The notes: a model not told the origin generated them from the sequence alone. 64,000 bases of DNA from an uncultured Rikenellaceae bacterium (GCA_964446825.1 CAYUQR010000015.1:125-64124), one strand, 5' to 3'. Shown: positions 418-15,438, counted from the first letter of the stretch. Numbers and translations: made by a program.

Positions 418-1638
418 TTATTCATACCTGAGAGCATCAATCGGATTTAAATTTGACGCCTTCCTGGCCGGATACCATCCAAAGAATACCCCTATTGCAA
501 AGCACACTGCAAACGCAAGAACCACCGACTGTGTTGTAATTACTGCATTTATGCTCATTAATGATCCGGCCAGTTCAGCAATCAGGTAACCGAATATTAC
601 CCCGAAAGCACCTCCTAATATGCTTAGTAACATCGATTCCACAAGAAATTGTTTAAGAATATCCTTGCCTCTGCCACCTACTGACATTCGTAATCCTATC
701 TCCCTTGTACGTTCAGTAACTGAAACAAACATGATATTCATGATCCCGATACCACCTACAAGCAGCGATATCCCTGCTATGGCTCCAAGAAGAATTGTCA
801 TTATATCGGTTATTGAAGACACAGTGGCTATTAATTCAGATTGCGACATAACCCTGAAATCATTCTCAGCTGATTCCTTTAGTTTATGTGTGGTTCGGAG
901 AGTCTCTTCAACCTCTGCCATTGCAGTGGGACTCTTCTCTTCACTTGCTGCAGAGGCATATATACCATTTATGTAATCAATTGCTGCAAGTCTGCGCTGA
1001 ACGGTTGTATAGGGAGCAAGTATAAGATCATCCTGGTCCTGTCCCATCCCGCTTTCACCTTTGTCTTCCAGAGTACCGATAATCTGAAACGGAAGGTTCT
1101 TGATGCGAATTGAAAGTCCGACCGGATCTGCTCCTTCGCCAAAGAGGTTTTCAACAACAGTTTGACCCAATATGCATACTTTAGCCATACTTTTTACCTC
1201 ATTGGCGTTGAATATCCTTCCGCTCTTTATCACGAGCTTCCTTATGTTAAGGTATTCCTCACTTACTCCATAAATTGTAGTCTGGGTGTTCTGATTACTG
1301 TATATCACCTGGCCATTGGCACGGACTTCAGGAGATACCGCTGCAAGCGCTGTCGCATCATTACGAAGAGCTACTACATCGCTATATTTTAGAGCCATTG
1401 AACTGGATGCACCTAAACTTACACCACCCCGCCGTTGAAAATTAGGCATAACCATGATCATATTCGTTCCCATTGATGACATCTCTTTTCTCATCCTTTG
1501 TTTTGAACCCTCCCCGATTGCAAGCATCGCAATTACAGAAGCTACACCTATTATAATTCCCAGCATTGTCAGAAAAGCTCGCAGCCTGTTTCTCACCAGA
1601 GCCCTTGTTGCGATCCTAAATAAATTTGAATAGTTCAT
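418..1638 (-). CDS. ABC transporter permease, MacB/FtsX family
   Basis: 406-aa ORF with an N-terminal TM (LTMLGIIIGVASVIAMLAIG), a large periplasmic insert and C-terminal FtsX-like helices (TREIGLRMSVGGRGKDILKQFLVES). Last gene of a tolC-adaptor-ATPase-permease string. Confidence 0.9.
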   Translation of the reverse strand: MNYSNLFRIATRALVRNRLRAFLTMLGIIIGVASVIAMLAIGEGSKQRMRKEMSSMGTNMIMVMPNFQRRGGVSLGASSSMALKYSDVVALRNDATALAAVSPEVRANGQVIYSNQNTQTTIYGVSEEYLNIRKLVIKSGRIFNANEVKSMAKVCILGQTVVENLFGEGADPVGLSIRIKNLPFQIIGTLEDKGESGMGQDQDDLILAPYTTVQRRLAAIDYINGIYASAASEEKSPTAMAEVEETLRTTHKLKESAENDFRVMSQSELIATVSSITDIMTILLGAIAGISLLVGGIGIMNIMFVSVTERTREIGLRMSVGGRGKDILKQFLVESMLLSILGGAFGVIFGYLIAELAGSLMSINAVITTQSVVLAFAVCFAIGVFFGWYPARKASNLNPIDALRYE

Positions 1639-1649
1639 CTTCCTGAATT

Positions 1650-2414
1650 TTAATTTTTTTTGTCAAATTCTTCAATATCTTCAACAGGCAGTGTCCTGAG
1701 TACTTCCTTTGCAGAAAGCCTGTCGGTGACGACATTCTCGCGCTGAATTTTTCCATCTCTGAAGATCACATTCCTGGTTGCAAACTTTGCAATATCTGTC
1801 TCATGAGTTACATATACTATTGTCCTTCCTTTTTCATTCAGATCCTGGAACAAGTCCATAATTTCAAATGAAGTCCTTGTATCGAGGTTTCCTGTTGGTT
1901 CATCGGCCAGTATCAGCACAGGGTCATTAACAAGAGATCTTGCTATTGCAACTCTCTGCTGCTGACCTCCGGACAACTGGTTGGGCATATGCCCCATACG
2001 ATCTGCAAGTCCTACTGCCTCAAGTGCATACAAGGCCCGCTCCTTGCGTTCCTTTGATCTTATTTTATCATTATAAAAGAGTGGCAGTTCAACGTTTTCC
2101 AGAGCTGTTGTTCTTGCAAGAAGATTATAGGCCTGAAAGACAAATCCCAGCTTTTTGTTTCGAAGTCTTGCCGTTTCATCCTTATCCATTGTATTAACAT
2201 CTACTCCATCAAGTAAATAGTCTCCATGTGTCGGTTTATCCAGACATCCAATGATATTTAGCATCGTGGATTTACCGGACCCGCTCATTCCCATTATTGC
2301 AACAAACTCTCCGGTATGTATCTTCAGATCCACTCCTCTTAAAGCGTGTACAGTAACCTCCCCTATGTGATAATCCTTCCTGAGGTTACTGATCTCTATG
2401 ATTGTATTATTCAT
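1650..2414 (-). CDS. ABC transporter ATP-binding protein (MacB/LolD type)
   Basis: Walker [10 protein letters not shown], signature [14 protein letters not shown], Walker [13 protein letters not shown]. The ORF track runs to 2453, but the family-like N-terminus [11 protein letters not shown] begins at ATG 2414 (either start is possible). Confidence 0.9.
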
Positions 2415-2449
2415 TACTCTTATTATTAGATTCTGTCTATTTGCTAGTT

Positions 2450-3748
2450 TCAAAATGGGAACGGACCTCTGGGACCATCATTTTTCTTTGTTGCAGTTTT
2501 TGCTGCTCCTTTATTCATGGCAATTATTACCTCATCTCCTTCATTCAGACCTGAAATGATTTCAACATTCGATCCGTTATCAACGCCAATCTTTACCATC
2601 TGAGGACGCAGTGTCATCTTATCATCTTTCACCCAAATAGTTTTTGTCTTGGGATCGCTTTTTATAGTTCCCGGGGCCATTCCGTTTGCAGGCATATTTG
2701 AAGCTGGGCCACCAGGACCGGTGGTTCTCACTGCCGGGGATCCCGTTGATGTTCCTGAAGAGGGACCTTGAGGCATCTTAGGAAGTGTACCGTCGGCCTG
2801 CATTTTGGCAAACATCTTCTGAAGGTATTCCTTATCAGGTGTAAATCTCATTGCCTTGCCTGACAATGTGAGTGTATTCTCCTTTTCCTCAACATAAATG
2901 GTAGCACTGGCAGTCATCCCCGGCATAAGCTTTTTATCGGGATTCGGAGCGCTTAATATTACCACATAGGTGACAACATTATTGGTAGTTACTGGCTGTA
3001 ATCTTACTTCAGACACATTACCTTCAAATTTCATGTCGGGATATGCATCAACAGTAAACTCAACACGCTGACCCTGTTTTACTTTTCCAATATCGGCTTC
3101 ATCAACACTTGTCTGTACTTCCATGCGTGTAAGGTCATTCACTATTGTAAACAATGTTGGGGTATTAAAGCTGGCTGCAACAGTCTGTCCCTCTTCCACG
3201 GCCCTGTTCAGCACTACGCCATCAATTGGTGATGTTATAGTAGCATAATCGAGATTGACCTGGGCCCGTGCCAGGGCAAATTTGGCATTTGCAAGGTTAC
3301 CTTTTGCATTCTCATAATTGTAAACTGCCTGGTCATAATCAGCCTTAGCTATCAGTTTCTTATCAAAAAGCACCTTTAACCGTTCATAAGTTGCTTCCTG
3401 AAAATTGAGCTGCGCCTGTGCCTGGTTGACTGATGCCTGGCTCTGGTCAAGCTGAGCCTTAAGAGCAGTTTCATCAAGCTTGGCGAGTAACTGACCCTGC
3501 TTTACATCCTGATTAAAAGTAACATAAACATGTTGCAGGATCCCCGATACCTGGGTACCAACATTTACTGTAGTTATTGCCTCAACGGTGCCTGTGGCAG
3601 TTACCGTGTTGGTAATGTTACCCCTTTCGACCTTTACAGTGTCGAAAGAAATAGTGTCATCCTTTTTAGTGAAGGATCTCAGTGCCATTATAGCGATAAT
3701 GACTGCTCCAACGGCAACTGCGATGATTATTAACGTTTTCTTTTTCAT
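2450..3748 (-). CDS. Efflux transporter periplasmic adaptor subunit (MacA/HlyD membrane-fusion family)
   Basis: 432-aa ORF with an N-terminal TM anchor, a coiled-coil hairpin region ([30 protein letters not shown]) and a beta-barrel region. Sits between tolC and the ABC ATPase. Confidence 0.88.
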
Positions 3749-3864
3749 TATTTTATTATTTTATCATTTTGGTTTTCATGTGATAATGGAACCCAAATGC
3801 CATCTAACCTGTAATTATTTGTATCATTATTTTATGTCGATGTGGGTGTCATTAAAAGTACCAT

Positions 3865-5193
3865 TTACAGTGACAAAGGAATTCCCATATAAAAATCAAG
3901 GATCTTATAACTGAAAATCAAATTATATTTTGATTGTAAGAGCTTGCTTTCCGCTACAATAAGATTCGTCTTTGAAACCAGGTAATCTGTGGAGTTGATG
4001 ATTCCCTGATTAAATTGTTCGTCTGAAAGAGATGATGCTTCCTGTGTAGCTTTATAGTTCTCGATGTTTGCTTCGTATTCAATCTGTGCTGAGGTGACAT
4101 CAAGGCAGGCCTGTTCAATACTCTTCCTCAACTGGTTTCTGGTGTCTATTTCGCTCAATTCAGCGTCCTGGTAACCTAGTTTTGCAAGAGATACATTTGT
4201 CTTAACCTGTTTTTTCTGATAGATAGGAATCGAAAGTGAAAATCCCACAGCGGGACTTATACCATTATTTAACTGATTATAATAGGGATCAGAAACCTGG
4301 CTTGAAAAACCTGAACTTAAACCAGCGCTGGCAGATAATACCGGGAAATATGATGACCTGGCAATTTTTTCATCAAGACCTGCAACTTCTTTATTTATGG
4401 AAGCATTTTTTACCTGAGGTTTTATTGCCAGGGCTGTTTCAAATACCGTTTTAACGTCCGGGATCAGCTTTTTATTAAGCACTGAATCCAGATCGGGATG
4501 TGCAACAGAGAAGTCCTCCTGCACAGGCAGTTCCATCAGTTGCATCAGTGTGATCTTTGCTATTGAGAGCTGGCTTTCTGAATTTGCAAGAGTAAGCTTC
4601 TCACTGGCCAGTTGAGATTTAACCTGGGCATAGTCTGCTGTAGATATCACCTGTAGCGTCAGTCTTTCTGCGGCTAAATTAAGCTGGCTGGTGGTTGATT
4701 CGATTTGTTTCTGACTGTTCTTTACCTGTTCCTCTGCATATAAAACCTGGAGATATGCATCCAGTATGTTCAGGCTGATCGATTCTTTAGTGGTTTCAAG
4801 AGAAAACTTCCCGGCTTCTATTCCCAGATCAGCCTGTTTGATCTGATTATTCAATCTTGAAGCGTTGTAAATTGTCACACCTGAGTTGACTGAGTAGTTT
4901 GAGCCATTTACTCCTGAAAAACCTGAACTACCGGTTAAATTGCTTTTGCTCCAGTTGAAATTCTCATTAACAGACCCATTTACAAATGGCATACGCTGAG
5001 CCTTTGCCTGATCAGCATAAACCACCGACTGCTGATTTGCCAGTTCGCTCTTTCTTATCTGGATATTCTGATCATAAGCATGCTCTATACATTTCTGAAG
5101 AGTCCATACACTGTCTTGTTGTGAAAGAATGAACATGCCATGGCATGTCCCTACTGTCAAACAAAAACTTAATATTAAAATCAATTTTCTCAT
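3865..5193 (-). CDS. TolC-family outer-membrane efflux protein
   Basis: 442-aa ORF with a signal peptide, two-fold repeated coiled-coil/beta architecture and typical TolC heptads (LDAYLQVLYAEEQV..., LIVAESKLLQSKYNLIFSYKILDFYMG). Confidence 0.85.
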   Translation of the reverse strand: MRKLILILSFCLTVGTCHGMFILSQQDSVWTLQKCIEHAYDQNIQIRKSELANQQSVVYADQAKAQRMPFVNGSVNENFNWSKSNLTGSSGFSGVNGSNYSVNSGVTIYNASRLNNQIKQADLGIEAGKFSLETTKESISLNILDAYLQVLYAEEQVKNSQKQIESTTSQLNLAAERLTLQVISTADYAQVKSQLASEKLTLANSESQLSIAKITLMQLMELPVQEDFSVAHPDLDSVLNKKLIPDVKTVFETALAIKPQVKNASINKEVAGLDEKIARSSYFPVLSASAGLSSGFSSQVSDPYYNQLNNGISPAVGFSLSIPIYQKKQVKTNVSLAKLGYQDAELSEIDTRNQLRKSIEQACLDVTSAQIEYEANIENYKATQEASSLSDEQFNQGIINSTDYLVSKTNLIVAESKLLQSKYNLIFSYKILDFYMGIPLSL

Positions 5194-5407
5194 AAATCTG
5201 TCTCCATTTTGGGATAAAAGTATGGACAGACCTATGCAGAAAAAAATTTAATAGAAGATCAGGTTGATTTTACCGACAGAAAGATGATTTTCAGATACAG
5301 AAACCACAGAGGATAGAACCAATAAATAAACAAGGAGTGCTGATTAAGCTATTTTCAACACCCCTTGCTTGGTAGTTTTAATATTTCAGCGCGACAGGTA
5401 TTCTGTT

Positions 5408-6355
5408 TTATATCGGATTTAAATAAGAGGGTTCTGATGACTTAATTAAGAGAAGATTTGCCCTTAGTCCGTCAAGATAGATAAGTGTCCATGAGAGAGT
5501 AGTGTCATTGAAAAGTCTTTTGGCCCATTTCTGTGGATCGATTGACGGTTCATCCCAATCAAAAATTGCCTGTGAATTCTTAACCAGTTCCTTCAATCCC
5601 GGATAAGTTTTCATCTCATTCAAAAGGCTTATAAGACTATTAGCCAACTTTTCCCCGGGATACGATTCCTGTAAAATTAATTCTGCACTTTTTCTTGCAT
5701 CAGGTCTAACAAGATTTCCGGGATTTTTAATCCATTGATCAAGAGGAATCTGCTCGAGATTTAAAACTGCAGCCTGGGTCTCATCTAAAATCTTTATTGT
5801 TTCATCAATTTTGCTATTTAAAGGTGATTTCAGACATGAATCTGGCAGTTGACCCAGAATAATTTCCAGCTTGCTATAATTTCGTGACAAATTATAACTA
5901 TCCTCTACCCTGTCTTTTGTGACATTCAGTGCCAACAGCGCTGAAAAAACAGAATTCAGGGCCAGTAGTAACAAAACAAAAACAGTATTATATATATTGA
6001 AATTCTTGTTTTTCGCGGTTACAATAAGGAAGACCGGTAGAAATACTACGTAAGGGAAGGGTAAAGCAATAGTAAGCATGACACCTGCAAAAGGCCAGTG
6101 CTGTATTTTGAACAGCATTGATATGAATATCACAAAACAGGTCAGGTATGTCACTATATACAGCAACAGGTTATGGTTGCTTTCTTCAGACTTATAATGA
6201 TTTATCAGGGCTGCCGGAAGAAAGATAAAAACCATGGTTAAAAGACCTAAAGTCAACATTACACCCGCACCGGGCATGTGGTTTACTTTGAAGATTGCCC
6301 CAATAAAAACGACCAGGGTGGTAATTACTCCCAAAATGTATATCTTTTGTTTCAT
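5408..6355 (-). CDS. Membrane protein with two 60-aa FK[VI][NQ]H[MW]P TM-hairpin repeats, a fifth TM and a ~170-aa extracytoplasmic C-terminal domain (GldL-like hairpins / GldM-like tail, tentative)
   Basis: 315-aa ORF with FKVNHMPGAG at aa 22 and FKIQHWPFAG at aa 82, each between two hydrophobic helices. A further TM (IYNTVFVLLLLALNSVFSALLALNV) is followed by TKDRVEDSYNL... Paralogous to the upstream 478-aa protein. Confidence 0.75.
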   Translation of the reverse strand: MKQKIYILGVITTLVVFIGAIFKVNHMPGAGVMLTLGLLTMVFIFLPAALINHYKSEESNHNLLLYIVTYLTCFVIFISMLFKIQHWPFAGVMLTIALPFPYVVFLPVFLIVTAKNKNFNIYNTVFVLLLLALNSVFSALLALNVTKDRVEDSYNLSRNYSKLEIILGQLPDSCLKSPLNSKIDETIKILDETQAAVLNLEQIPLDQWIKNPGNLVRPDARKSAELILQESYPGEKLANSLISLLNEMKTYPGLKELVKNSQAIFDWDEPSIDPQKWAKRLFNDTTLSWTLIYLDGLRANLLLIKSSEPSYLNPI

Positions 6356-6375
6356 TTTACAATGTATTAATTTGA

Positions 6376-7812
6376 TTATCTATGATTTGCAGCAGCAGTC
6401 AGCATTTGCCATTCAAAAGTAAGGATCCCGTTTTTAAGGACTTCAAGGGAGTGCAAGCCCGACATAAGCGATATTATATTATTTTCATTGATCTCCCCCG
6501 GTAAATAATTTGAAGGGTCCAGAAGATTTTCAAACTTCAGAAGATCTTTTCCCGGATTAATTCCGGAAATGAATTCTTCGTATTGCATTATAGCCGCATT
6601 AAGTTCCTGGCGTGAACTGCAGCCAGGGAGAAGAAAATCTCTGACCGGAGCCAAAGTGAAGGGTGCAGAAAGATACCTGTACTGAATAACGGGACCTGTT
6701 TCTGTCTGCTTTATCTGATCAGAACCGACTGCAGCAGTTGCTGGTCTTCCTTCTGATGCCTGCACCATCTGAACCTGTATGTTGTCAATAAGAGATAGTA
6801 ATCCTGCTGTTTTGGTATGAATTTGTTCCATCTGCGGATAGCTTGCAGAATCGTGGTACATGGTCATAAGTGAATTGTTATTACCATTCAGATAATTAAA
6901 CATTTCCTGTTGCTGCAGCTGGTTAGGATAAAAACCTTCTTCGTATGAACGCTGCAGGTTGAGGTTCAACAGAGCTCCGGGAACAATAATCAACAGAGCA
7001 CCTATTACCAGGTAGATGTATCGTGCTTTTATATGATTTTCCTCCTTCCATGTAATCCATGTATACCATGGGAAAGCCACCACACTAAGAACAACAACCC
7101 CCAGTATCATAAGAGCTGTAGCCAGAGGCCAGTGCTGTATTTTAAAGAACATCCCTGCGACATAAAAAATAATTCCGGCTGCGCCAATAATATATACAGG
7201 TCTCTTAGCCCTGTTTTCCTGATCAGTTATCCTGCTTACCATCAGGGCTGGTATAAAGAAGAGTACAGCGGATAATGCAGCAAGGCTCAAAATTATTCCG
7301 GCTCCCGGCCAGTGCTGTATTTTGAAAAGAGTTCCTGTAATAAAGAACAGCGATGCAAAAAACGCGGAGATAAACAAGAAGATTCTCTTTCTGTTGCGAG
7401 TTTCTTTCCAGAGGACGCTGAGGGCTGAAGGCATAAAGAGAAAGGCCAGGATCAGTGCCCCAAGGGTCATCAGGATTCCGGCACCTGGCCAGTGCTGTAT
7501 CTTGAATAAGGCTGCAAAGCCATACATAATAGTTCCGGCAACGCCGGAAATTTTCATTAGGTTTTTCATTTTTCTGTATTTGGTGTCAACTAAATAAAGT
7601 GTCTCTTCCTGTATTTCCCTGATTCTGCGTGATCCAATTTTTCTTTTTACCTTTTTATAGGCTTCGGAAAAATCCAGTCCTCTTTGCATTTCATACTCCA
7701 CATCGCAGCATACATGATCGATCAGTTCCTCAAGGAGATGGGAAAATGTTATATCCTGCTTCCTTAAGTCACGGCTTATCAGGTTAATATCATGAAGGCT
7801 CAGTTCATGCAT
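6376..7812 (-). CDS. PadR-coupled membrane protein: cytoplasmic helical N-domain, three 60-aa FKIQHWP TM-hairpin repeats, a seventh TM and a ~195-aa extracytoplasmic domain
   Basis: 478-aa ORF overlapping padR by 8 bp. FKIQHWP occurs at aa 103, 163 and 223 (exactly 60 aa apart). Lys/Arg-rich linkers lie between hairpins. The N-terminal EELIDHVCCDVEYEMQRGLDFSEAYKKVKRKIG resembles PadR-associated permease-prefix/HAAS-like helices (from memory). Confidence 0.75.
   Translation of the reverse strand: MHELSLHDINLISRDLRKQDITFSHLLEELIDHVCCDVEYEMQRGLDFSEAYKKVKRKIGSRRIREIQEETLYLVDTKYRKMKNLMKISGVAGTIMYGFAALFKIQHWPGAGILMTLGALILAFLFMPSALSVLWKETRNRKRIFLFISAFFASLFFITGTLFKIQHWPGAGIILSLAALSAVLFFIPALMVSRITDQENRAKRPVYIIGAAGIIFYVAGMFFKIQHWPLATALMILGVVVLSVVAFPWYTWITWKEENHIKARYIYLVIGALLIIVPGALLNLNLQRSYEEGFYPNQLQQQEMFNYLNGNNNSLMTMYHDSASYPQMEQIHTKTAGLLSLIDNIQVQMVQASEGRPATAAVGSDQIKQTETGPVIQYRYLSAPFTLAPVRDFLLPGCSSRQELNAAIMQYEEFISGINPGKDLLKFENLLDPSNYLPGEINENNIISLMSGLHSLEVLKNGILTFEWQMLTAAANHR
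7018..7557 (-). repeat. Three in-frame 180-bp (60-aa) intragenic tandem repeats encoding TM-hairpins
   Basis: The + strand 20-mer GGCCAGTGCTGTAT(T/C)TT(G/A)AA occurs at 7127, 7307 and 7487 (exactly 180 bp apart). The same 20-mer is at 6093 in the neighbouring gene, with a diverged copy at 6272..6292. Confidence 0.85.
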
Positions 7813-8149
7813 GGCTTAAGCCGGGTTGAATATCAATAATACGTTTTAACGATTCTATGAACTCGTTCATCTCTTTAATCTTTTCAATCACAAGTGATTG
7901 CCCTTTATCAGTAAGTGCATAATAGATCCTTACCCTGTTATTATAGTTATCCGATGCAGTTACGAGAATACCGTCGTTTTCAAGTTTATGAAGCACAGGA
8001 TATATAGCTCCGTAGGTAAGTTTGATTTCACCGCCGGTCAGTTCTTCCACTTTCCCTGTTAATGCATAGCCGTGCATGGGGCCTTCCTCTTTCAATACTT
8101 TCAGAAGTATTGTTTTCAGGGATCCTTTAAGAAGTTCGTTTGATATCAT
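7805..8149 (-). CDS. PadR-family transcriptional regulator
   Basis: 114-aa ORF with winged-helix pattern LKGSLKTILLKVLKEEGPMHGYALTGKVEELTGGEIKLTYGAIYPVLHKLENDGIL plus a C-terminal helix. Classic PadR size and layout. Confidence 0.9.
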   Translation of the reverse strand: MISNELLKGSLKTILLKVLKEEGPMHGYALTGKVEELTGGEIKLTYGAIYPVLHKLENDGILVTASDNYNNRVRIYYALTDKGQSLVIEKIKEMNEFIESLKRIIDIQPGLSHA

Positions 8150-8181
8150 GATTTATTTATATGTAAGTTTCTTATATATTG

Positions 8182-8189
8182 CAAATATA
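8182..8189 (-). promoter_or_regulatory. Candidate Bacteroidota -7 promoter box (TATATTTG) for padR
   Basis: Reverse complement of caaatata matches TAnnTTTG, 33 nt upstream of the padR ATG (8149), in a very AT-rich divergent intergenic region. Confidence 0.3.
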
Positions 8190-8542
8190 TTATATTATTT
8201 TTATATATTATTACCTTTTAATAATATTTTTTTATTTTAATATATTTCCCCAAGAATATTTTATTTTAGAAATATTATCTGCATTGCGATTAAATTTTTT
8301 ATAAATCCAAAATGACAGGTCCTGATAATTCCTAACAATAATAATTATTCATCCCTGGGATTGGTCGCATTAAATGTGGGGATAGGTCAGCGAGACCATA
8401 ATCAATTAAATTTAAACATATTAACGTTAATATCCAAAAATATTTTATAAAATATTTGCATAATTAATAAATACAAATTAATTTTGATCAGTTGGTTAAA
8501 CTAAATGGTTTATCTAATTAGTTAAATAATCTGGTTAAAATT

Positions 8543-9154
8543 ATGCCTGAGTTAGAGAGTCATACGGAGGAAAAAATATTTGAAGCGGCAAGCGATGTAT
8601 TCATTGAAGAAGGATCAGCCGGAGCAAGGATGCAGACTATAGCCGACAGAGCAGGGATAAACAAGGCCCTGCTCCATTACTATTTCAGATCAAAGGACCA
8701 TCTATTTGAAGCTGTGTTTTTAAAACTGGCTCAGAAAATGCTCAACAAGTTCTCCCCAATATTTGAGGAAAACCTTACCCTTGAAGATAAAATACGGTTC
8801 TTCTTCAGGGAACATATAAGTTTTATGCAACAAAACCCTAAACTGCCGGCATTTATTATCAGCGAAATAAACCGTAACCCCGAACGCATAAGGAAACTCC
8901 TCGCTAATGTCGATTTCAAAAAATTCTGGTCAGAAATTCTTACACAACATTCTGCAGAACTACATAAATATAATATAAGTGAAGAAAACCTCCCACAGAT
9001 AATGACAACCATTGCTTCATTATCCGTTTTTCCATTTGCAGCCAAAGGTATAATTGAAGTGATATTAAGCAAATCCGGAGTTGATTTTGAAAAATATGTT
9101 GAAGATCGTAAGCAATTTGCCGCTGATTTTGTTATAAAAGCTATAAGCCGATAG
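8543..9154 (+). CDS. TetR/AcrR-family transcriptional regulator
   Basis: 203-aa ORF with N-terminal HTH (ARMQTIADRAGINKALLHYYFRSKDHLFEAV). First gene of the efflux operon. Confidence 0.9.
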   Translation: MPELESHTEEKIFEAASDVFIEEGSAGARMQTIADRAGINKALLHYYFRSKDHLFEAVFLKLAQKMLNKFSPIFEENLTLEDKIRFFFREHISFMQQNPKLPAFIISEINRNPERIRKLLANVDFKKFWSEILTQHSAELHKYNISEENLPQIMTTIASLSVFPFAAKGIIEVILSKSGVDFEKYVEDRKQFAADFVIKAISR

Positions 9155-9157
9155 TAA

Positions 9158-10483
9158 ATGAAAATGAGAAATTTTAGCATATATATGAAAATGAAAATAC
9201 TAATAACATTAATCCTCGCATCGCTGTGGTCATTTAACTCACAGGCCCAGAAGATCCTTACCCTCAAAGAATGTTACGATCTTGCAAACACCAGTAACGC
9301 TCTGGCTGGCGAAAAGACTGCTTACTCCGAGATCTCAAGACTTAAGGATAACAACCTGTCGAAGGGCTGGCTTCCGACTCTCGACGCAAACGGAAGTTTT
9401 GTTTACAATTCTTCAGTTATTGATCTCAGTTCGGTACTTGGCTCATTGCCGGTTCCCGGAATTGCAAATGCTATAAAGCCGCTTCCAAATGAACAATATA
9501 AAATAACCATCGACATTAACCAGGTAATTTATGACGGAGGCGCCATAAAAGGTGCCAGAGACCTTGAAAAAGCAAATCTCAAAGTAAACGAAAAACAGAC
9601 TGAAACTGACCTGTATAAATTGCGTGAACAGATAAACGGATATTACTTTAATCTTATGCTTCTTGCACGGCAGAAAGAATTGCTCGATAACTATCATGAA
9701 TTAATAAAGAAAAAAATCGATGCTATGGAGTCAGCTGTTGCCAATGGTGTTATTTTGAAATCGGATATTGACGTTCTTAATTCGGAAAAAATCAATATTG
9801 AACAACAATTATCTGAAAATGAAATCAGGAAAACCACTTTGCTTAAAGTACTGTCTGACATTACCGGGAAAGAGATAGATGCTTCAACTGAGTTTATTGT
9901 CCCTTCTGTATCTGCAGAGCTGACAAATGAAATATCCCGGCCGGAACTTCAGCTTTTCGACATGAAAAAAGAGCAGCTTGACGCCGGAATAAAAGCAATT
10001 GACAGTAAAAGAATGCCGGTTGCTTTTGGCTTCGCTACTTTCGGGTATGGAAATCCTCCAGGAAGCAATTTCTTCAAGGATGAATTTGCTCCTTATTATA
10101 TTGTAGGGGCTGGTGTAAAATGGAACATATTTGACTGGAATAAAGTTAAAAACGAAAAACAGATTGTTACTCTTCAGCAGGGTATAATTGAGAACCGCAA
10201 AAACGACCTGACGGATAACCTTAAAAGACTCCTGGAGTCTAAAAATGCTGAAATAAAAAGCTATATAGCATTGACAGAATCAGACTCAGAATTGATAACC
10301 CTCAGGAAAAGAATTACTGCTACAGCTGAATCACAATATAAAAACGGCACCATTACTGCCACGGAATATCTTAATGAACTTAATTCTGAACGACAGGCCA
10401 TCTTAAATTATGAGATCCATAAATTAAACCTTGCCCTTGCAAGAGTCGAATACCTTAATATCAGTGGAAAAGAAATTGAATAA
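9158..10483 (+). CDS. TolC-family outer-membrane efflux protein
   Basis: 441-aa ORF. A signal peptide more likely starts at the internal MKMKILITLILASLWSFNSQAQ (ATG 9185). Coiled-coil repeats are typical of TolC. Confidence 0.85.
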   Translation: MKMRNFSIYMKMKILITLILASLWSFNSQAQKILTLKECYDLANTSNALAGEKTAYSEISRLKDNNLSKGWLPTLDANGSFVYNSSVIDLSSVLGSLPVPGIANAIKPLPNEQYKITIDINQVIYDGGAIKGARDLEKANLKVNEKQTETDLYKLREQINGYYFNLMLLARQKELLDNYHELIKKKIDAMESAVANGVILKSDIDVLNSEKINIEQQLSENEIRKTTLLKVLSDITGKEIDASTEFIVPSVSAELTNEISRPELQLFDMKKEQLDAGIKAIDSKRMPVAFGFATFGYGNPPGSNFFKDEFAPYYIVGAGVKWNIFDWNKVKNEKQIVTLQQGIIENRKNDLTDNLKRLLESKNAEIKSYIALTESDSELITLRKRITATAESQYKNGTITATEYLNELNSERQAILNYEIHKLNLALARVEYLNISGKEIE

Positions 10484-10498
10484 CAAACACTTAAAAAT

Positions 10499-11392
10499 AT
10501 GAAAATCAGATTACTAATAATTATTCTTGCTACACTTCTTTTCGGTTGTAAAAATAATACGGAAGAAGCTGATGCCTATGGAAATTTTGAATCCACGGAG
10601 GTCATTGTCTCTGCGGAAACAGGCGGACGTATAATGCAGTTTGACTGTGTTGAAGGTTCTCCCATTGAAAAAGGTTCAACAATAGCCCTGGTTGATACAA
10701 CACTTTTTCATCTGCAAAAAGCCGAAATTAATGCCGGGATAAAAAGCATTAAAACCCGTATTGCTTCAATCAATGCACAGAATGAAATTCTCTCACAGCA
10801 GATCGAAAACATTAATGTCAACATAGCACGTATAAGCAATATGCTTAAAAATGATGCAGCAACTCAAAAGCAGCTCGATGACCTTACCGGGCAGGTAGCT
10901 GTACTGCAAAAACAGATAAGTGCAAACAACACCCAGAAGATATCCGTTACTGCTGACATTACTGTGAATGCATCGAAAAAAACGACTCTTAATGAACAGA
11001 TAACCAGGAGTAGTGTAAAAAGTCCGCTGAAGGGTACAATTATTGAAAAATATGCTGAAGCAGGTGAAATGACGGCACCCGGCAAACCTCTTGTCAAATT
11101 ATCCGACCTGTCTGTTATGAAACTTAAGGTTTATGTGAGCGGAGCGCAACTGGGCAGTATCAAGACAGGTCAGCAATGTACTGTCAGAATTGATAAAGGT
11201 GACAAGGGATTCACTTCATTTCCGGGAACCATAAGTTACATATCAGATAAAGCTGAGTTCACACCTAAGATAATACAGACAAAAGAAGAACGTGTCATCC
11301 TGGTTTATGCAGTAAAAATAGATGTTGCTAATGACGGGGCTCTGAAATCGGGGATGCCGGGTGAAGCCATTTTCTCACCAACCGGAAAGTGA
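10499..11392 (+). CDS. HlyD-family membrane-fusion/adaptor protein (YbhG-like)
   Basis: 297-aa lipoprotein-like ORF (LLFGC) with a coiled coil and a biotinyl-lipoyl-like beta region. Precedes the ABC ATPases and ABC-2 permeases. Confidence 0.85.
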   Translation: MKIRLLIIILATLLFGCKNNTEEADAYGNFESTEVIVSAETGGRIMQFDCVEGSPIEKGSTIALVDTTLFHLQKAEINAGIKSIKTRIASINAQNEILSQQIENINVNIARISNMLKNDAATQKQLDDLTGQVAVLQKQISANNTQKISVTADITVNASKKTTLNEQITRSSVKSPLKGTIIEKYAEAGEMTAPGKPLVKLSDLSVMKLKVYVSGAQLGSIKTGQQCTVRIDKGDKGFTSFPGTISYISDKAEFTPKIIQTKEERVILVYAVKIDVANDGALKSGMPGEAIFSPTGK

Positions 11393-11396
11393 TAAG

Positions 11397-12311
11397 ATGA
11401 ATGCAATAATAGAATCATCAGGTGTAAGCAAAGTTTTCGGAACGACTAAAGCTCTGACCGATATCTCATTCACAATAAATGAATCTGAGATATTTGGATT
11501 TATAGGACCTGATGGTGCAGGGAAAACCACTCTTTTCAGGATTATTACCACCCTTCTCCTGCCTGACAAAGGAACAATGAATGTTCTCGGACTTAATAGT
11601 GTAAAAAATTATAAAGAACTAAGAAAATATATTGGTTATATGCCCGGAAGGTTCAGTCTTTACCAGGACCTTTCAGTTGAAGAGAATCTTAATTTTTATG
11701 CCACTGTTTTCGGAACTACTGTTGAAGAAAATTATGATCTGATCTCGGAAATTTATTCTCACATCGAGCCATTTAAAAAACGACTTGCCGGACAGCTTTC
11801 AGGAGGGATGAAACAGAAACTGGCATTGTCATGTGCGCTCATACATAAACCTAAACTTCTCGTACTGGATGAACCAACCACGGGTGTTGACGCCGTATCG
11901 CGTTCCGAGTTCTGGGATATGCTTGGAAAATTACGCAAATACAATATTACAATAATCGTTTCCACGCCATATATGGATGAAGCTATGCGTTGCGACCGCG
12001 TAGCTTTGATCCAGAATGGAACGATCCTCGCAATCGATTCCCCCGGGAAAATCAGGGAAGGATTCAGCAGAAGACTTTTTACTGTAAAATCAGCTGAAAA
12101 ATACAAATTAATAATTGCGCTGAGAAAATTCCCGGATACATTTACCGCTTACCCTTTCGGAGATTCTGTACATGTTACATTTGTGAACGACGATGCTGAA
12201 AAATCACTCTTTAGTTTTCTGCAGGGTGAAGGGCTTTTTGATGTCGAAATTAATGCAGCTGAAGCTGGCATTGAAGACAGATTCCTTGAATTAATGAACA
12301 AAGAACAATGA
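11397..12311 (+). CDS. ABC transporter ATP-binding protein (first of two; YbhF half-like)
   Basis: Walker A GPDGAGKTT, signature LSGGMKQKLALSCAL, Walker B LLVLDEPTTGVD. The track start (GTG 11361) overlaps hlyD; ATG 11397 (MNAIIESSGV) lies 4 nt after the hlyD stop. Confidence 0.9.
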   Translation: MNAIIESSGVSKVFGTTKALTDISFTINESEIFGFIGPDGAGKTTLFRIITTLLLPDKGTMNVLGLNSVKNYKELRKYIGYMPGRFSLYQDLSVEENLNFYATVFGTTVEENYDLISEIYSHIEPFKKRLAGQLSGGMKQKLALSCALIHKPKLLVLDEPTTGVDAVSRSEFWDMLGKLRKYNITIIVSTPYMDEAMRCDRVALIQNGTILAIDSPGKIREGFSRRLFTVKSAEKYKLIIALRKFPDTFTAYPFGDSVHVTFVNDDAEKSLFSFLQGEGLFDVEINAAEAGIEDRFLELMNKEQ

Positions 12312-13042
12312 TGGAAAACAAGGTCATAATAGTAAAGAATCTTGTTAAGAAGTTCGGAAATTTTGTTGCGAATGACAATCTTAATTTTGAGGTTTCCGGG
12401 GGAGAGATATTTGGATTCCTTGGTGCCAACGGAGCAGGCAAAACAACAGCTTTAAGAATTTTATCCGGACTTTCCAAGCCATCTTCAGGTGAAGTAAGCG
12501 TTGCAGGCTACGATGCGTATAAACAAACGGAGCTGATCAAAAAAAATATCGGATATATGTGTCAGAAATTTTCCCTTTACGAAGATCTTACCGTAAGAGA
12601 AAATATTATTCTGTACGGAGGTATTTATGGAATGAGCAAATCACTTATAAGGGAAAGGCTTACTGAACTCCTCTCAAAACTCAGGTTCCGTGAGTATGAG
12701 AACCGGATTATTGCAGATCTTCCCCTGGGACTAAGACAAAAACTGGCTTTCTCTGTGGCGGTCCTTCATGAACCAAGGATTGTGTTCCTTGATGAACCGA
12801 CAGGAGGTGTTGACCCGATAACCAGGAGACAATTCTGGGAAATGATATATGAAACAGCTTCAAGGGGAATAACAGTATTTGTTACAACACACTATATGGA
12901 CGAAGCCGAATATTGCGACCGGATATCAATAATGAACGAAGGGAAAATTGTAGCCCTTGACACTCCTGCCAATTTGAAAAAACAATATAATGCTTCATCG
13001 GTAGAGGAGGTATTCATTAAAATAGCGAGACCAAATTTATAA
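12308..13042 (+). CDS. ABC transporter ATP-binding protein (second; YbhF half-like)
   Basis: Walker A GANGAGKTT, Walker B IVFLDEPTGGVD, with a degenerate signature (LPLGLRQKLAFSVAV). ATGA overlap with the upstream ATPase gene. Confidence 0.9.
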   Translation: MMENKVIIVKNLVKKFGNFVANDNLNFEVSGGEIFGFLGANGAGKTTALRILSGLSKPSSGEVSVAGYDAYKQTELIKKNIGYMCQKFSLYEDLTVRENIILYGGIYGMSKSLIRERLTELLSKLRFREYENRIIADLPLGLRQKLAFSVAVLHEPRIVFLDEPTGGVDPITRRQFWEMIYETASRGITVFVTTHYMDEAEYCDRISIMNEGKIVALDTPANLKKQYNASSVEEVFIKIARPNL

Positions 13043-13063
13043 ACCAGACTATTAATACATTAT

Positions 13064-14173
13064 ATGAAAAAATTTCTGGGGTTTGTTAAAAAAGAGTTCC
13101 TGCATATCTTCAGGGATTACAGGACGCTCTTTATACTTTTCGGGATCCCTGCCGCTCAGATACTCATTTTTGGCTTTGCTGTAAGCACTGACATTAAAAA
13201 TGCCGGTGTGGCAGTGCTCGATCTCTCGCATGATGAGATAACAAGACAATTATCTGAAAAAATAATATCTTCCGGTTTTTTCAAAAGTACCGGAAGCCTG
13301 CTCAATTATAATGATATTGACCGTACATTTAAAAAGGGTAAAACTAAAGCTGTAATAGTTTTTGAGAAAGATTTCGGTCAAAAGCTGATTAATGAAGGAA
13401 ATGCTTCTCTCAATATAATTGCTGATGGTTCAGAGCCAAACACAGCCACCCTTGTAACAAACTATATAACTGCAATTGTTAGAGATTTCAATTCGGAACT
13501 GGCGGGTCCGGCTCCTAATAATTCAGTAAGGATAAAACCCGAAGTAAAAATGTTTTATAACCCAAATCTAAAAAGTCCTTTTATGTTCGTTCCGGGGGTA
13601 ATAACGCTGATACTCATACTCATCTGTGCGCTTATGACATCCGTTACAATAACCCGGGAAAAAGAGTTCGGTACAATGGAGGTCCTGCTCGTATCACCAC
13701 TGAGGCCTGTTCAGATCATTCTTGGAAAAGTAATGCCATATTTCATTCTCTCATTTATAAATGTCATTCTTATACTAATCCTGTCGTGGTTTGTGTTCGG
13801 ACTTCCTGTAAAAGGAAGCATGGCCCTGCTCCTTGCTGAGAGCATGCTCTATATACTTATGAGCCTTACCCTCGGAATTTTGATCTCAACCGTGTCAAGT
13901 ACCATGCAGCAGGCAATATTTATTTCTCTTATCGGATTGATGTTACCAACTGTACTTCTGTCCGGATTTATCTTTCCGATTGAAAATATGCCAAAAGTAT
14001 ATGATTATGTCAGTATGATTCTGCCACCAAGATATTTCATAGTAATAATTAAGAATATAATGATAAAGGGCACCGGTATACTGTACATATGGAAAGAGAC
14101 ACTTATACTGATCGCTATGACAGTAATATTTGTAGGGCTTAGTGTAAGAAATTTTAAGATCAGACTCGAGTAG
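13064..14173 (+). CDS. ABC-2 type transporter permease (YbhS/YbhR-like)
   Basis: 369-aa ORF with an N-terminal TM, a periplasmic loop and five C-terminal TMs, typical of ABC-2 permeases. Confidence 0.88.
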   Translation: MKKFLGFVKKEFLHIFRDYRTLFILFGIPAAQILIFGFAVSTDIKNAGVAVLDLSHDEITRQLSEKIISSGFFKSTGSLLNYNDIDRTFKKGKTKAVIVFEKDFGQKLINEGNASLNIIADGSEPNTATLVTNYITAIVRDFNSELAGPAPNNSVRIKPEVKMFYNPNLKSPFMFVPGVITLILILICALMTSVTITREKEFGTMEVLLVSPLRPVQIILGKVMPYFILSFINVILILILSWFVFGLPVKGSMALLLAESMLYILMSLTLGILISTVSSTMQQAIFISLIGLMLPTVLLSGFIFPIENMPKVYDYVSMILPPRYFIVIIKNIMIKGTGILYIWKETLILIAMTVIFVGLSVRNFKIRLE

Positions 14174-14319
14174 AAGGATGGGGAGAAGAGGAGAAGAGAA
14201 GAAGATGAAAAAAATAAAAGTAAAGAATAAAAAAAATAATAGTTCCCCCTCTTTACGAAGTTGAGAGGGGGCGGAGGGGGTGAGTTCATGAAGAAGAAAT
14301 GAATAATAAAGAGTAAACC

Positions 14320-15438
14320 ATGAGGACAATATTTTACCTGATAAGAAAAGAGTTTATCCAGATATTCCGGAATAAATTTATTTCAAAAGCAATTTTTGCA
14401 GTGCCGATTGTTCAGATGCTTATTTTGGTTCCCGCAGTAACATTCGAAATAAAAAACATAAATCTGGCAATTATTGACAAGGATATGACACCCGAATCGA
14501 GGGGTCTGATAAATAAGCTGGAAGGTTCAACCTTTTTTAAGGTTACATTTTCAACCTTCTCTGAAAAAGAGGCAAATAACCTTCTCCATAAAAACAAATG
14601 CAGTATGGTGCTTCAGATTCCATCAGGTTTTGGAAAGGATATCGGTAGTGGAAACCCGGGTAAATTAATGGCCACAATTGATGCCATAAATGCCTCAAAT
14701 GCCCAGCTTACATGGGCTTATTTCAATGGTGTTATAAGCGATTATAATTTGGATATCATCAAAGAGAATATAAACACAAACCCTCCTTATCCCCTGTCTA
14801 AGATAAAAATTTCCAATAGGTACTGGTATAATGAAACGTTAAACTATAAGTATTACATGCTTCCCGGAATATTGGTAATACTTGTCACAGCAGTAGGGTT
14901 CCTGCTTGCCGGATTAAATATGGTCAGGGAAAAAGAGATTGGTACAATTGAACAGATAAATGTTACCCCTGTTAAGAAGTATCATTTCATAATCGGTAAA
15001 ATGGTCCCTTTTTTGATGATCGGGCTTGTCGATCTTGCCCTCGGTCTTGTTCTTGGGAAACTGGCTTTTAATATCCCATTTGAAGGAAGTATTCTACTCC
15101 TGTTTCTTTCCAGTTCAATATTCCTGGTTGCAGTTCTGGGAATGGCTCTTTTCATATCTGCTTTTTCAGGAACTCAGCAACAATATATGTTCGTTGCATT
15201 TTTCTGTATGGTAATCTTTATTCTCATGAGCGGCATCTTCACTCCCTACGAAAGTATGCCGATGTGGGCCCAGGATTTCAATCTTATTAATCCTGTTGCA
15301 TACCTTATGCGCATAAACAGAATGGTAATGCTTAAAGGATCATCAATGCATAATATAAACCGCGAGATCTATTCGCTGATACTGATTGCCATAGTTTTTA
15401 CATTTCTCGCAGTAAGACGTTACCGCAAGACAGCATAA
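14320..15438 (+). CDS. ABC-2 type transporter permease (YbhS/YbhR-like paralog)
   Basis: 372-aa ORF with the same architecture as 13064..14173 (shared motif REKE(F/I)GT(M/I)E). Confidence 0.88.
   Translation: MRTIFYLIRKEFIQIFRNKFISKAIFAVPIVQMLILVPAVTFEIKNINLAIIDKDMTPESRGLINKLEGSTFFKVTFSTFSEKEANNLLHKNKCSMVLQIPSGFGKDIGSGNPGKLMATIDAINASNAQLTWAYFNGVISDYNLDIIKENINTNPPYPLSKIKISNRYWYNETLNYKYYMLPGILVILVTAVGFLLAGLNMVREKEIGTIEQINVTPVKKYHFIIGKMVPFLMIGLVDLALGLVLGKLAFNIPFEGSILLLFLSSSIFLVAVLGMALFISAFSGTQQQYMFVAFFCMVIFILMSGIFTPYESMPMWAQDFNLINPVAYLMRINRMVMLKGSSMHNINREIYSLILIAIVFTFLAVRRYRKTA

Follow-up and report, generated by a model that had tools for sequence, protein, structure and literature searches.

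A minus-strand gene unit from an uncultured Rikenellaceae bacterium encodes a PadR-family regulator and two membrane proteins, here called A and B, in which GldL-type transmembrane (TM) hairpins are joined to units resembling the TM helix and first periplasmic domain (D1) of GldM/PorM. Because the residues of proton coupling are absent from both proteins and the pair is wired to a PadR repressor, A and B most likely serve in signalling and not as a motor. The window, the whole stretch of DNA analysed, spans 64,000 nucleotides (GCA_964446825.1 CAYUQR010000015.1:125-64124), and within it the unit consists of padR (7805-8149), protein A (6376-7812, 478 aa) and protein B (5408-6355, 315 aa). An initial annotation of this DNA had proposed a concatenated GldL/GldM-like 5:2 module; its open reading frames, motifs and coordinates were all recovered, and every detail that was checked proved correct. 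We found no earlier description of this PadR-linked GldL-GldM fusion system in the literature. The features of the locus are listed below.

8154..8215, minus strand: predicted promoter/operator of the padR-A-B unit (62-nt consensus in related loci)
7805..8149, minus strand: padR, 114-aa standalone PadR-family winged-helix regulator (Pfam PadR, 2.2e-19)
7558..7812, minus strand: protein A residues 1-85, cytoplasmic helical N-domain, probably perm_prefix_1/HAAS class (NCBIfam perm_prefix_1 and model)
7399..7557, minus strand: protein A hairpin 1, GldL-type TM, about residues 86-138, FKIQHWP at 103 (hydropathy, profile and PDB match)
7225..7386, minus strand: protein A hairpin 2, GldL-type TM, about residues 143-196, FKIQHWP at 163 (profile)
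7045..7206, minus strand: protein A hairpin 3, GldL-type TM, about residues 203-256, FKIQHWP at 223 (profile)
6379..7029, minus strand: protein A residues 262-478, seventh TM helix and periplasmic helical domain, GldM/PorM TM + D1-like (fold and relatives)
6188..6355, minus strand: protein B hairpin 1, GldL-type TM, residues 1-56, FKVNHMP at 22 (profile)
6008..6172, minus strand: protein B hairpin 2, GldL-type TM, about residues 62-116, FKIQHWP at 82 (profile)
5411..5998, minus strand: protein B residues 120-315, fifth TM helix and periplasmic helical domain, GldM/PorM TM + D1-like (fold and relatives)
5318..5370, minus strand: intrinsic-terminator-like element 3′ of B (16-bp stem-loop, then UUUAUUUAUU)
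3865-5193, minus strand: TolC-like gene, context (Pfam)
2450-3748, minus strand: HlyD-type adaptor gene, context (Pfam)
1650-2453, minus strand: ABC ATPase gene, context (Pfam)
418-1638, minus strand: MacB_PCD/FtsX permease gene, context (Pfam)

GldL-type hairpins and their pairing

Translation places FKIQHWP at residues 103, 163 and 223 of A and residue 82 of B, and FKVNHMP at residue 22 of B, as first reported. The DNA motif noted at 6093, 7127, 7307 and 7487 is also present at these positions. It is the mere coding image of the peptide repeat, which at the DNA level appears as five 51-nt copies of 61-80% identity, spaced by 180 nt inside each gene. Hydropathy analysis detected six of the seven TM helices of A and five TM helices in B; the first TM helix of A is visible in the hairpin-HMM domains and as a helix in the predicted model. 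A five-hairpin profile recovers each hairpin at E = 1e-23 to 1e-26 and gave no further matches in the window. The hairpin repeat is far from chance expectation.

The likeness to GldL suggested in the initial annotation is substantiated by Pfam GldL_N (PF22827), which scores 60.6 bits over three stretches of A and 60.0 bits over two stretches of B (cutoff 24), and by the PDB GldL chain 7sau_C, which matches the hairpins at E = 5e-4. GldL_N also matches 32/32 members of the B family, and NCBIfam GldL_gliding matches 31/31 members of the A family. The full-length GldL equivalog TIGR03513 remains below its cutoff of 68.3 bits with both A (31.8) and B (45.9), its match covering only profile positions ~7-48. 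The next TM helix begins within ~10 residues of each hairpin end, and both proteins lack the cytoplasmic C-terminal domain of GldL. The cytoplasmic linkers are rich in Lys/Arg, as had been noted, and this puts the HWPGAG loops in the periplasm together with the C-terminal domain of each protein, as in GldL and GldM. A two-TM hairpin with an FKxxH (K27/H30) loop and an identical membrane topology are common to A/B and GldLM/PorLM, the motor of type IX secretion and gliding in Bacteroidota (cryo-EM 6YS8, 7SAT, 7SAU, 7SAX, 7SAZ; PorM 6EY0, 7CMG). The K27/H30 equivalents do not vary in any of the five hairpins among the 31 + 32 family members.

The two-hairpin partner is present in 74/75 and 42/42 determinable related loci. 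This 3+2 pairing is near-absolute and essentially obligatory in the class, so that the locus encodes five hairpins and two GldM-type units. Three-plus-two loci thereby encode the 5:2 block ratio of GldLM/PorLM, known here from the genes alone, with the blocks concatenated in two polypeptides as against seven in the motor. Gene counts, together with this analogy, suggest an A-B heterodimer in 5:2 geometry. A sister class differs in having two hairpins and one GldM unit, a block ratio of 2:1, with a partner gene in 0/14 loci. The repeat total of five anticipated by the initial annotation consequently holds for the 3+2 loci but is not a family-wide rule, which tells in part against the annotation by its own standard. 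Since the sister class cannot make a 5:2 assembly, a closed five-hairpin ring is not needed for the role of the superfamily. Across both classes no constant neighbour other than padR was found.

In GldL, the invariant membrane-embedded Glu49 (TMH2) and Tyr13 (TMH1), and in GldM, R9 and Y17, are functionally essential or important (10.1101/2020.05.11.089193). The positions of E49 are occupied by L122, A182 and L242 in A and by M41 and P101 in B. Those of Y13 are Ser, Ser and Ile in hairpins 1-3 of A (by hand, in the register of the 7sau_C alignment), while R9 and Y17 correspond to F126 and N134 of B (register from hhalign to GldM). No equivalents of these four residues, and no Arg or Glu in the TM helices, were found even when the least diverged relatives were included. 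TM7 of A contains no Arg, likewise in relatives with the LLALNVSK junction, and neither family has an invariant Asp/Glu in its TM segments. The second helices thus lack a membrane Glu, a point that the initial annotation had itself raised against a motor.

The GldM/PorM-like units

AlphaFold models of the two proteins have pLDDT values of 75 and 77, rising to 85-91 over much of the C-terminal domain of A. When the A model was compared with the PDB using Foldseek, the top six matches (7sau_A, 7sax_A/B, 7cmg_B and 6ey0_D/B) were all GldM/PorM, with E = 0.013-0.3 and a TM-score on the target of up to 0.70; the identity of 7sau_A as GldM was inferred from the five chains exemplified by 7sau_C being named GldL. 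For the B model, GldM/PorM chains account for nine of the top ten. The E-values for the two models are modest, from 0.013 to ~1.

Neither C-terminal domain of the window proteins matches Pfam GldM_1st (PF12081). Direct hhalign comparison with GldM gave a weak match for B (E = 8e-4, 24.6%), in the correct register, and no significant match for A. The two C-terminal domains show no similarity to one another detectable by hhalign. Relatives of the same architecture found with the A profile do match Pfam GldM_1st (up to 3.8e-22) and NCBIfam GldM_gliding (9.5e-24), with GldM_1st reaching 80 bits across 190 mostly non-membrane residues. By hhalign, these GldM_1st-positive relatives align with real GldM at 99.1% (E = 7e-19), with A at 95.7% (E = 1e-8, 204 columns) and with B at 94.7% (E = 6e-8). 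At the level of sequence, the TM + periplasmic units are thus linked to GldM transitively, through relatives. A GldM-only profile matches the A-type and the B-type gene of 3+2 loci that have diverged less (1e-8 to 1e-16), and there the junction after the TM helix reads LLALNVSK[DE]V; that of B is LLALNVTKDRV. The GldM junction motif cited in the initial annotation is confirmed, since source-named GldM proteins have the consensus LALNMSKEV. The annotation's proposal of GldM-like units stands on fold and relatives, but direct sequence matching is weak for B and absent for A. A single TM helix leading into a helical D1, with an LALNxSKxV junction, is held in common with GldM/PorM. A and B differ from GldM in that both stop after this ~190-residue domain, without D2-D4.

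PadR, its probable partner domain and the locus

Besides the Pfam match, the padR product matches NCBIfam padR_acidobact at 3.2e-17, under the model cutoff. The gene lies directly upstream of the A-type gene in 76/79 and 58/58 related loci (two sets). The 8-nt overlap of padR with A described in the initial annotation was confirmed, and an identical overlap occurs in 63/76 related loci.

The N-domain of A has three to four helices in the predicted model and, in the family alignment, an invariant DHxCCDxExEM motif at residues 32-42. NCBIfam perm_prefix_1 (NF038403) matches residues 26-61 of the window protein at 0.017, scoring 14.9 bits where the cutoff is 30. The model matches 18/31 A-family members (best 1.1e-4) and a two-hairpin relative at 1.5e-8, which by E-to-bits scaling is ~35 bits and probably above the cutoff. 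These recurrent matches favour the earlier suggestion of a PadR-partner helical domain, with the window protein itself under the cutoff. No match to Pfam DUF1700/HAAS was found at E <= 1, and a sequence search of the PDB with this domain gave no informative match. The GxP kink of the third HAAS helix is missing; the family consensus there is MGSRRLKEIQ, with G60 conserved and no Pro after it.

HAAS-PadR-like wHTH dyads have been described as a concept and tied to envelope-stress modules; in their sensor architecture, a cytoplasmic PadR-partner domain is N-terminal to a multi-TM + periplasmic module (10.1101/2020.09.24.301986). FtsX/MacB permeases encoded beside PadR genes, among them PadR of the acidobacterial type, are the usual fusion partners of perm_prefix_1 domains (NCBIfam description; 10.1101/2020.09.24.301986). 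The present system likewise has a short standalone PadR gene immediately upstream, here overlapping, and an N-terminal cytoplasmic helical domain with an ELxDHxxxxxExxxxxGxxxxEA pattern followed by a multi-TM + extracytoplasmic module. Both follow the logic of an alternative two-component system. It differs in the GldL/GldM-derived module, which is not among the partners in 10.1101/2020.09.24.301986, in an N-domain that has the family-specific DHxCC, lacks GxP and is below curated thresholds in the window protein, and in a second subunit, B, which has no N-domain and is obligatory in this class. It also differs from GldLM, which lacks such a fused PadR-partner domain and a padR gene in the same predicted unit; no gldK, gldN or gldL/M genes were found within the window or in 165 related loci.

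The predicted promoter region contains a -33 TTTG-like box and a -7 TAnnTTTG-like box (TATATTTG), which we take, from their likeness to the consensus, to be a putative Bacteroidota promoter. Downstream of both is an inverted repeat, TATATAAG-N3-CTTA(C/T)ATA (8160-8178). The 62-nt consensus is present in 62/73 related loci, in most of which it ends 33-36 nt 5′ of the padR ATG. The palindrome occurs as a single copy within the 64-kb window. The terminator-like hairpin after B has a fold energy of -25.9 kcal/mol (z = -2.86), with 2/200 shuffles folding equally well or better. The unit is thus bounded by a conserved predicted promoter with a unique palindrome and, after B, by a terminator-like hairpin, and the padR-A-B operon appears self-contained.

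Downstream of B on the minus strand, a block of exporter genes occupies 418..5193. In 29-39 of the related three-hairpin loci the best matches to these genes likewise follow downstream in the same orientation; B + TolC would fit within 65 loci. The linkage is absent from the two-hairpin class. B and tolC are separated by a 214-nt gap that holds the terminator-like hairpin, and no padR palindrome was found upstream of the exporter genes in the 64-kb window.

Proposed mechanism and alternatives

With moderate confidence, we favour a HAAS/perm_prefix-type signalling system with PadR, in which a tethered, proton-dead GldLM derivative would serve as transmembrane transducer. PadR would be a small DNA-binding repressor, acting most likely on the palindrome over its own promoter. 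The cytoplasmic N-domain of A, of a kind always beside PadR genes (perm_prefix_1/HAAS), probably binds PadR or lets it go. Beyond this domain, A would present three GldL-type hairpins head to tail, then a GldM-type TM helix and first periplasmic domain; B would contribute two GldL-type hairpins and the second GldM-type unit. Pairing of A and B is most likely through the GldM-like parts, much as GldM dimerises in the motor, and the pair would form a 12-helix bundle with five hairpins round two central helices. Because its parts are tethered and the coupling residues are replaced by apolar or non-equivalent residues, the bundle should be no rotary proton motor; most likely it is a conformational relay. 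The bundle could respond to a cue from the periplasm or the membrane, received by the GldM-D1-like domains or by the ring of conserved Lys/His residues at the hairpin loops; its shift would alter how the N-domain engages PadR. What the analysis shows is the identity of the domains, the logic of the topology, the obligatory pairing of the genes, the lost coupling residues and the conserved palindrome at the promoter; the A-B heterodimer in 5:2 geometry, the contact between PadR and the N-domain, the cue and which way regulation runs are what we infer.

Alternatively, A and B may themselves be the effector, a complex that maintains the envelope or membrane and is kept at its level by PadR, while the N-domain titrates PadR as feedback in the manner of PspA on PspF. 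This is a possible explanation, though we think it doubtful. The palindrome confined to its own promoter in the window, the terminator-like hairpin, the seemingly self-contained operon, padR as sole constant neighbour in both classes and the envelope-stress modules linked to HAAS-PadR dyads all fit it. Against it, neither protein contains a domain of enzymatic or known protective function, their architecture is that described for sensors (10.1101/2020.09.24.301986), and PadR may have distant targets, since the palindrome search was limited to the 64-kb window. We consider it unlikely that padR, A and B serve the MacAB-TolC-type tripartite ABC exporter next to them as a dedicated regulator or an accessory, perhaps sensing the pump or its substrate. 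The TolC, HlyD, ABC ATPase and MacB/FtsX genes downstream in many three-hairpin loci would suit such a role, as would the usual fusion of perm_prefix_1 to FtsX/MacB permeases; the linkage is however not universal, the gap and hairpin intervene before tolC, and tolC has no padR-type palindrome 5′ of it.

A motor-type module is not borne out. If A and B made up a functional rotary motor driven by ions, a 5:2 GldLM condensed into two polypeptides that powers secretion, gliding or some other process of the envelope, its expression switched by PadR, this would account for the homology to both GldL and GldM, for exactly five hairpins and two GldM-type units per locus and for the conserved K27/H30 at the periplasmic interface. 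Such a motor is nevertheless very improbable. The E49/Y13 and R9/Y17 equivalents are lost and the TM helices have no Arg/Glu; the ~10-residue cytoplasmic linkers join the hairpins to each other and to the central helix, and these tethers should block continuous, full rotation topologically; without D2-D4 the periplasm is not spanned; gld genes are absent from the window and related loci; and the sister class has 2:1 units. Least credible of all is that the GldL/GldM resemblance is convergent or of low complexity, with A and B generic multi-TM proteins carrying a helical periplasmic domain. TM segments do inflate profile scores, the Foldseek E-values are modest and Pfam GldM does not match either C-terminal domain directly. 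Yet two independent motor-subunit families occur in one polypeptide with the topology and order of the motor itself, GldL_N scores far exceed the cutoff, the GldM_1st matches of the relatives extend over mostly non-membrane residues, these relatives align with real GldM at 99.1% by hhalign, and two independently modelled proteins have almost only GldM/PorM as top fold matches.

The transducer that we favour may also resemble MotAB, ExbBD, TolQR and ZorAB (review PMC9389320) in having two central helices, each a single TM with a periplasmic domain, surrounded by five outer units. In those systems the subunits are free and an acidic residue embedded in the membrane is used, whereas A and B are tethered and have no such residue. 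One relative gave a sub-threshold MotA_ExbB match.

The padR-A-B unit and its GldL-type hairpins

The three minus-strand reading frames proposed in the initial annotation are confirmed, as is the 8-nt overlap between padR and A. The features discussed here are as follows.

Features of the window around padR-A-B
418-5193, minus strand: TolC/HlyD/ABC/MacB-FtsX efflux cluster, downstream of the unit and on the same strand
5318-5370: 16-bp stem-loop and U-run, directly after B
5408-6355, minus strand: B, 315 aa; two hairpins, TM5 and a periplasmic domain
6376-7812, minus strand: A, 478 aa; N-domain, three hairpins, TM7 and a periplasmic domain
7687-7719, minus strand: DHxCCDxExEM motif, residues 32-42 of A
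7805-8149, minus strand: padR, 114 aa
8154-8215: 62-nt element upstream of padR
8160-8178: 8-bp inverted repeat
8543-15438, divergent: TetR/TolC/HlyD/two ABC ATPases/ABC-2 permeases efflux cluster, upstream of the unit

The FKIQHWP motif was found where it had been placed, at residues 103, 163 and 223 of A and residue 82 of B, with FKVNHMP at residue 22 of B; the 20-nt DNA motif likewise lies at 6093, 7127, 7307 and 7487. At the DNA level there are five 51-nt copies of 61-80% identity, spaced by 180 nt inside each gene. The 180-bp DNA repeat was considered as an independent feature and rejected, being merely the coding image of the peptide repeat. Searching the whole window with a five-hairpin profile yields these five hairpins only.

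The suggested likeness to GldL is borne out. Pfam GldL_N matches three stretches of A with 60.6 bits and two stretches of B with 60.0 bits (cutoff 24), and NCBIfam GldL_gliding matches both proteins under its full-length cutoff. In the Schleiferia GldLM structure, the family profile also matches the GldL chain 7sau_C with E = 5e-4. By these profile matches the hairpins of A and B are GldL hairpins.

Hydropathy detects six of the seven TM helices of A and all five of B; the first TM helix of A is seen in the hairpin-HMM domains and in the structure model. The Lys/Arg-rich linkers sit on the opposite side of the membrane from the HWPGAG loops, so that the N-domain of A is placed in the cytoplasm and the C-terminal domains of both proteins in the periplasm, in agreement with the topology originally put forward. 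On the plus strand, opposite A and B, a mechanical listing also gives ORFs of 62-91 aa (6234-6422, 7033-7275 and 7322-7597); nothing supports them, and in all likelihood they are spurious.

The C-terminal units and GldM

AlphaFold2 models of A and B were built from alignments of 31 and 32 sequences and have pLDDT values of 75 and 77, reaching 85-91 in the C-terminal domain of A. When the A model was compared with the PDB using Foldseek, the best six matches (7sau_A, 7sax_A/B, 7cmg_B and 6ey0_D/B) were all GldM or PorM, followed by unrelated helical proteins. GldM/PorM chains also account for nine of the ten best matches to the B model. Because the E-values for both models are modest (0.013 to about 1), evidence was sought in sequence. 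The A profile, run exhaustively with HMMER, gave 2,015 clusters at 50% identity, including proteins of 372-432 aa that share the N-domain and have two hairpins only. Of ten relatives scanned, six pass Pfam GldM_1st (five with two hairpins, and a 504-aa protein with three), the best at 3.8e-22 (79.7 bits; cutoff 25), and NCBIfam GldM_gliding reaches 9.5e-24 in relatives. These relatives connect the C-terminal domains of A and B to GldM.

Profile-profile comparisons of the C-terminal domains (relatives are those that pass GldM_1st)
A with relatives: 95.7%, E = 1e-8, 204 columns
B with relatives: 94.7%, E = 6e-8, 185 columns
Relatives with 58 source-named GldM: 99.1%, E = 7e-19, 191 columns
B with GldM, direct: 24.6%, E = 8e-4, 161 columns; register LALNVTK / LALNMSKE
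A with GldM, direct: 0.3%, E = 0.2, 132 columns

The GldM assignment made at the outset thus stands by fold and via the relatives, but is weak for B and absent for A by direct comparison: Pfam GldM_1st has no match in the window proteins or in 32 B-family members even at E <= 10, and hhalign found no significance for the C-terminal domain of A against real GldM, nor for those of A and B against each other. A GldM-only profile matches both genes of several other loci with a three-hairpin and two-hairpin pair, at 1e-8 to 1e-16 in L137, L148, L154 and L162, the junction there reading LLALNVSK[DE]V. Since it does so, the window pair is, as judged by these profiles, a more diverged branch of the family, with GldM TM-D1 in both subunits. 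About 1 kb downstream of the pair in L162, a 354-aa ORF (6644-7708) matches the GldM-D1-like profile, yet no hairpins were detected in it; possibly it is a third paralogue that lacks them.

Pairing, PadR and transcription signals

The family comprises about 2,000 clusters at 50% identity, and the genome scan matched 232 species-level genomes. The 80 genome loci listed from it all belong to MAGs of uncultured Bacteroidota, for the most part with the label Bacteroidales, whose sources are fens, peat, soil and sediments. Among these, padR lies upstream of 76 of 79 A-type genes, overlapping by 8 nt in 63 of the 76, and a B-type gene follows in 74 of 79, mostly at 11-23 nt; a contig end cuts four of the other five. 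In a second sample of 80 more diverse metagenome loci, PadR is upstream in 58/58, all 42 determinable three-hairpin genes have a two-hairpin partner beside them, and none of 14 two-hairpin genes has a partner. The total per locus is therefore either five hairpins with two GldM units or two hairpins with one. The fixed total of five that had been predicted holds as an obligatory three-plus-two pairing and fails for this sister class (L081, L085, L086, L089 and L143-L163 among those listed), in which PadR is accompanied by a single protein of 400-430 aa, made up of N-domain, two GldL hairpins and GldM TM-D1, with no partner gene. In another relative, P0334 (355 aa), four GldL-type hairpins come after the N-domain and the C-terminal domain is lacking, which may reflect either truncation of the gene call or an additional architecture. 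Members of the family are currently named hypothetical, 'DMT family transporter' or 'PQ loop repeat' in databases, names which the GldL/GldM assignment corrects.

The window PadR is a short standalone PadR. The N-domain of A had been proposed to be of the type paired with PadR. NCBIfam perm_prefix_1, a small helical domain found N-terminally in membrane proteins encoded beside PadR genes, matches it weakly (0.017), recurs in 18 of 31 family members and reaches 1.5e-8 in one two-hairpin relative; the Pfam DUF1700/HAAS models did not match A. A PDB sequence search with the N-domain returned designed helical repeats only and was uninformative. The arrangement of membrane proteins with such a helical N-domain beside PadR genes has been described as the HAAS-PadR dyad, for which a role in place of two-component systems has been proposed (10.1101/2020.09.24.301986). 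The padR-A-B unit fits the logic of these dyads, but its sensor module is absent from those listed for them and would add a new one to the proposed class. The cytoplasmic motif DHxCCDxExEM is invariant in the N-domain of A, and DHxCC is retained even by distant two-hairpin relatives. With two adjoining Cys residues beside His, Asp and Glu, the motif may be a site sensitive to metal or redox state, and possibly an input of its own to PadR control.

A sigma-70 promoter scan was dropped as uninformative for Bacteroidota, giving many AT-rich matches, and 73 upstream regions were instead compared. The 62-nt element is common to 62 of 73 loci, mostly ending 33-36 nt before the ATG (consensus ATTTGcATTT..TAATATTTTATATTTGCAATATATAAgaAACTTAtATATA); it looks like a Bacteroidota -33/-7 promoter. 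Directly after these promoter-like boxes comes the inverted repeat TATATAAG-N3-CTTATATA, whose window copy is a candidate PadR operator; no second copy was found before tolC or elsewhere in the 64-kb window. The stem-loop after B (-25.9 kcal/mol, z = -2.86) is a strong terminator-like element parting padR-A-B from the tolC-macAB-type genes. Given the conserved promoter-like element, the palindrome unique to the window and this hairpin, padR-A-B looks like a self-contained unit, probably autoregulated. In 29-39 three-hairpin loci a MacAB-TolC-type exporter follows the unit on its own strand (65 loci have room for B and TolC), and the TetR/ABC-2 cluster is divergently upstream in 45/72 loci. For both clusters, synteny extends to about 60% of three-hairpin loci. 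Neither efflux cluster was found at two-hairpin loci, where the flanking genes have no relation to efflux pumps (isochorismatase, MFS, glycosyltransferase).

Motor residues and proposed role

The proton-coupling core of GldLM consists of GldL E49 (invariant) and Y13 with GldM R9 and Y17, while GldL K27 and H30 form the periplasmic GldL-GldM interface (10.1101/2020.05.11.089193). Equivalents of K27 and H30 are invariant across all five hairpins.

Equivalents of the proton-coupling residues in A and B
GldL E49: L122, A182 and L242 in A; M41 and P101 in B
GldL Y13: Ser, Ser and Ile in hairpins 1-3 of A, assigned by hand from the 7sau_C alignment register
GldM R9: F126 in B
GldM Y17: N134 in B

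The absence of a membrane Glu, noted originally as counter-evidence to a motor, is thus upheld. TM7 of A has no conserved Arg, and the least diverged relatives also lack equivalents of E49, Y13, R9 and Y17. GldM D2-D4 and the GldL cytoplasmic domain are missing from A and B. Some 10 cytoplasmic residues tether each block to the next and should block continuous rotation. Canonical gldL/gldM were sought in the window and all fetched loci without a match, and no gldK/L/M/N gene lies in any of them. The unit's kinship with GldL and GldM is one of domains; it lacks their defining functional features, and for this reason is not a GldLM motor.

Most likely padR-A-B is a signalling unit built on PadR, with a tethered, proton-dead bundle of GldLM type as its transmembrane relay. 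A and B would pair via their GldM-like parts, on the model of the GldM dimer in the motor, and so surround two helices with five hairpins, and the conserved Lys/His loops would touch the D1-like domains. On a cue from the periplasm or the membrane, the bundle would then shift and alter the engagement, by the single N-domain, of PadR sitting on the palindrome. Of this scheme, the domain identities, the reasoning on topology, the obligatory pairing, the residue loss and the conserved promoter-like element with its palindrome are shown; the A-B heterodimer in a 5:2 geometry, its contact with PadR, the cue and the direction of regulation are what we infer. Since the single-gene class has only two hairpins, a closed five-hairpin ring would not seem essential to what the family does, and because of this we put a 5:2 assembly of A and B at less than an even chance. 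A bolder version of the relay, which we consider unlikely, makes the superfamily the first 5:2-type stator turned receptor, its residual swivel reporting periplasmic or membrane state to a transcription factor. The tethered bundle would consist of five hairpins and two axles in the A-B pair and of four plus two in homodimers of the single-gene class, and the ring of hairpins would swivel against the GldM-like dimer. One candidate cue is periplasmic pH or surface charge, read through the conserved ring of five Lys/His pairs.

To our knowledge, no role is known for GldLM/PorLM beyond that of a motor dedicated to type IX secretion and gliding, and its subunits have hitherto been treated as motor-specific. 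In the full-text literature neither GldL-GldM fusions nor a link to PadR were found described, a review of 5:2 motors mentions no fusions, and searches for GldL-like, GldM-like, PorL-like and PorM-like proteins and the relevant Pfam identifiers gave nothing relevant. The family shows the GldL hairpin and GldM TM-D1 fused, multiplied, stripped of proton coupling and joined to PadR-type one-step signalling, and gives evolutionary comparison its first relatives of GldLM that are not motors. The main interest lies in stator evolution and in a potential natural concatenated 5:2-like assembly. Were A and B to form a 5:2 complex, this would be a naturally concatenated, asymmetric stator with each hairpin position separately mutable; such a rotation-locked, genetically defined assembly would be a tool for studying stator assembly and symmetry breaking.

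We also note that residues 50-106 of the two-hairpin relative P0368, covering the last part of the N-domain together with the first hairpin helix, give a sub-threshold match to Pfam MotA_ExbB (E = 0.0012, 19.1 bits; cutoff 22.9), which possibly bears on the debated GldL-MotA relationship or is noise.
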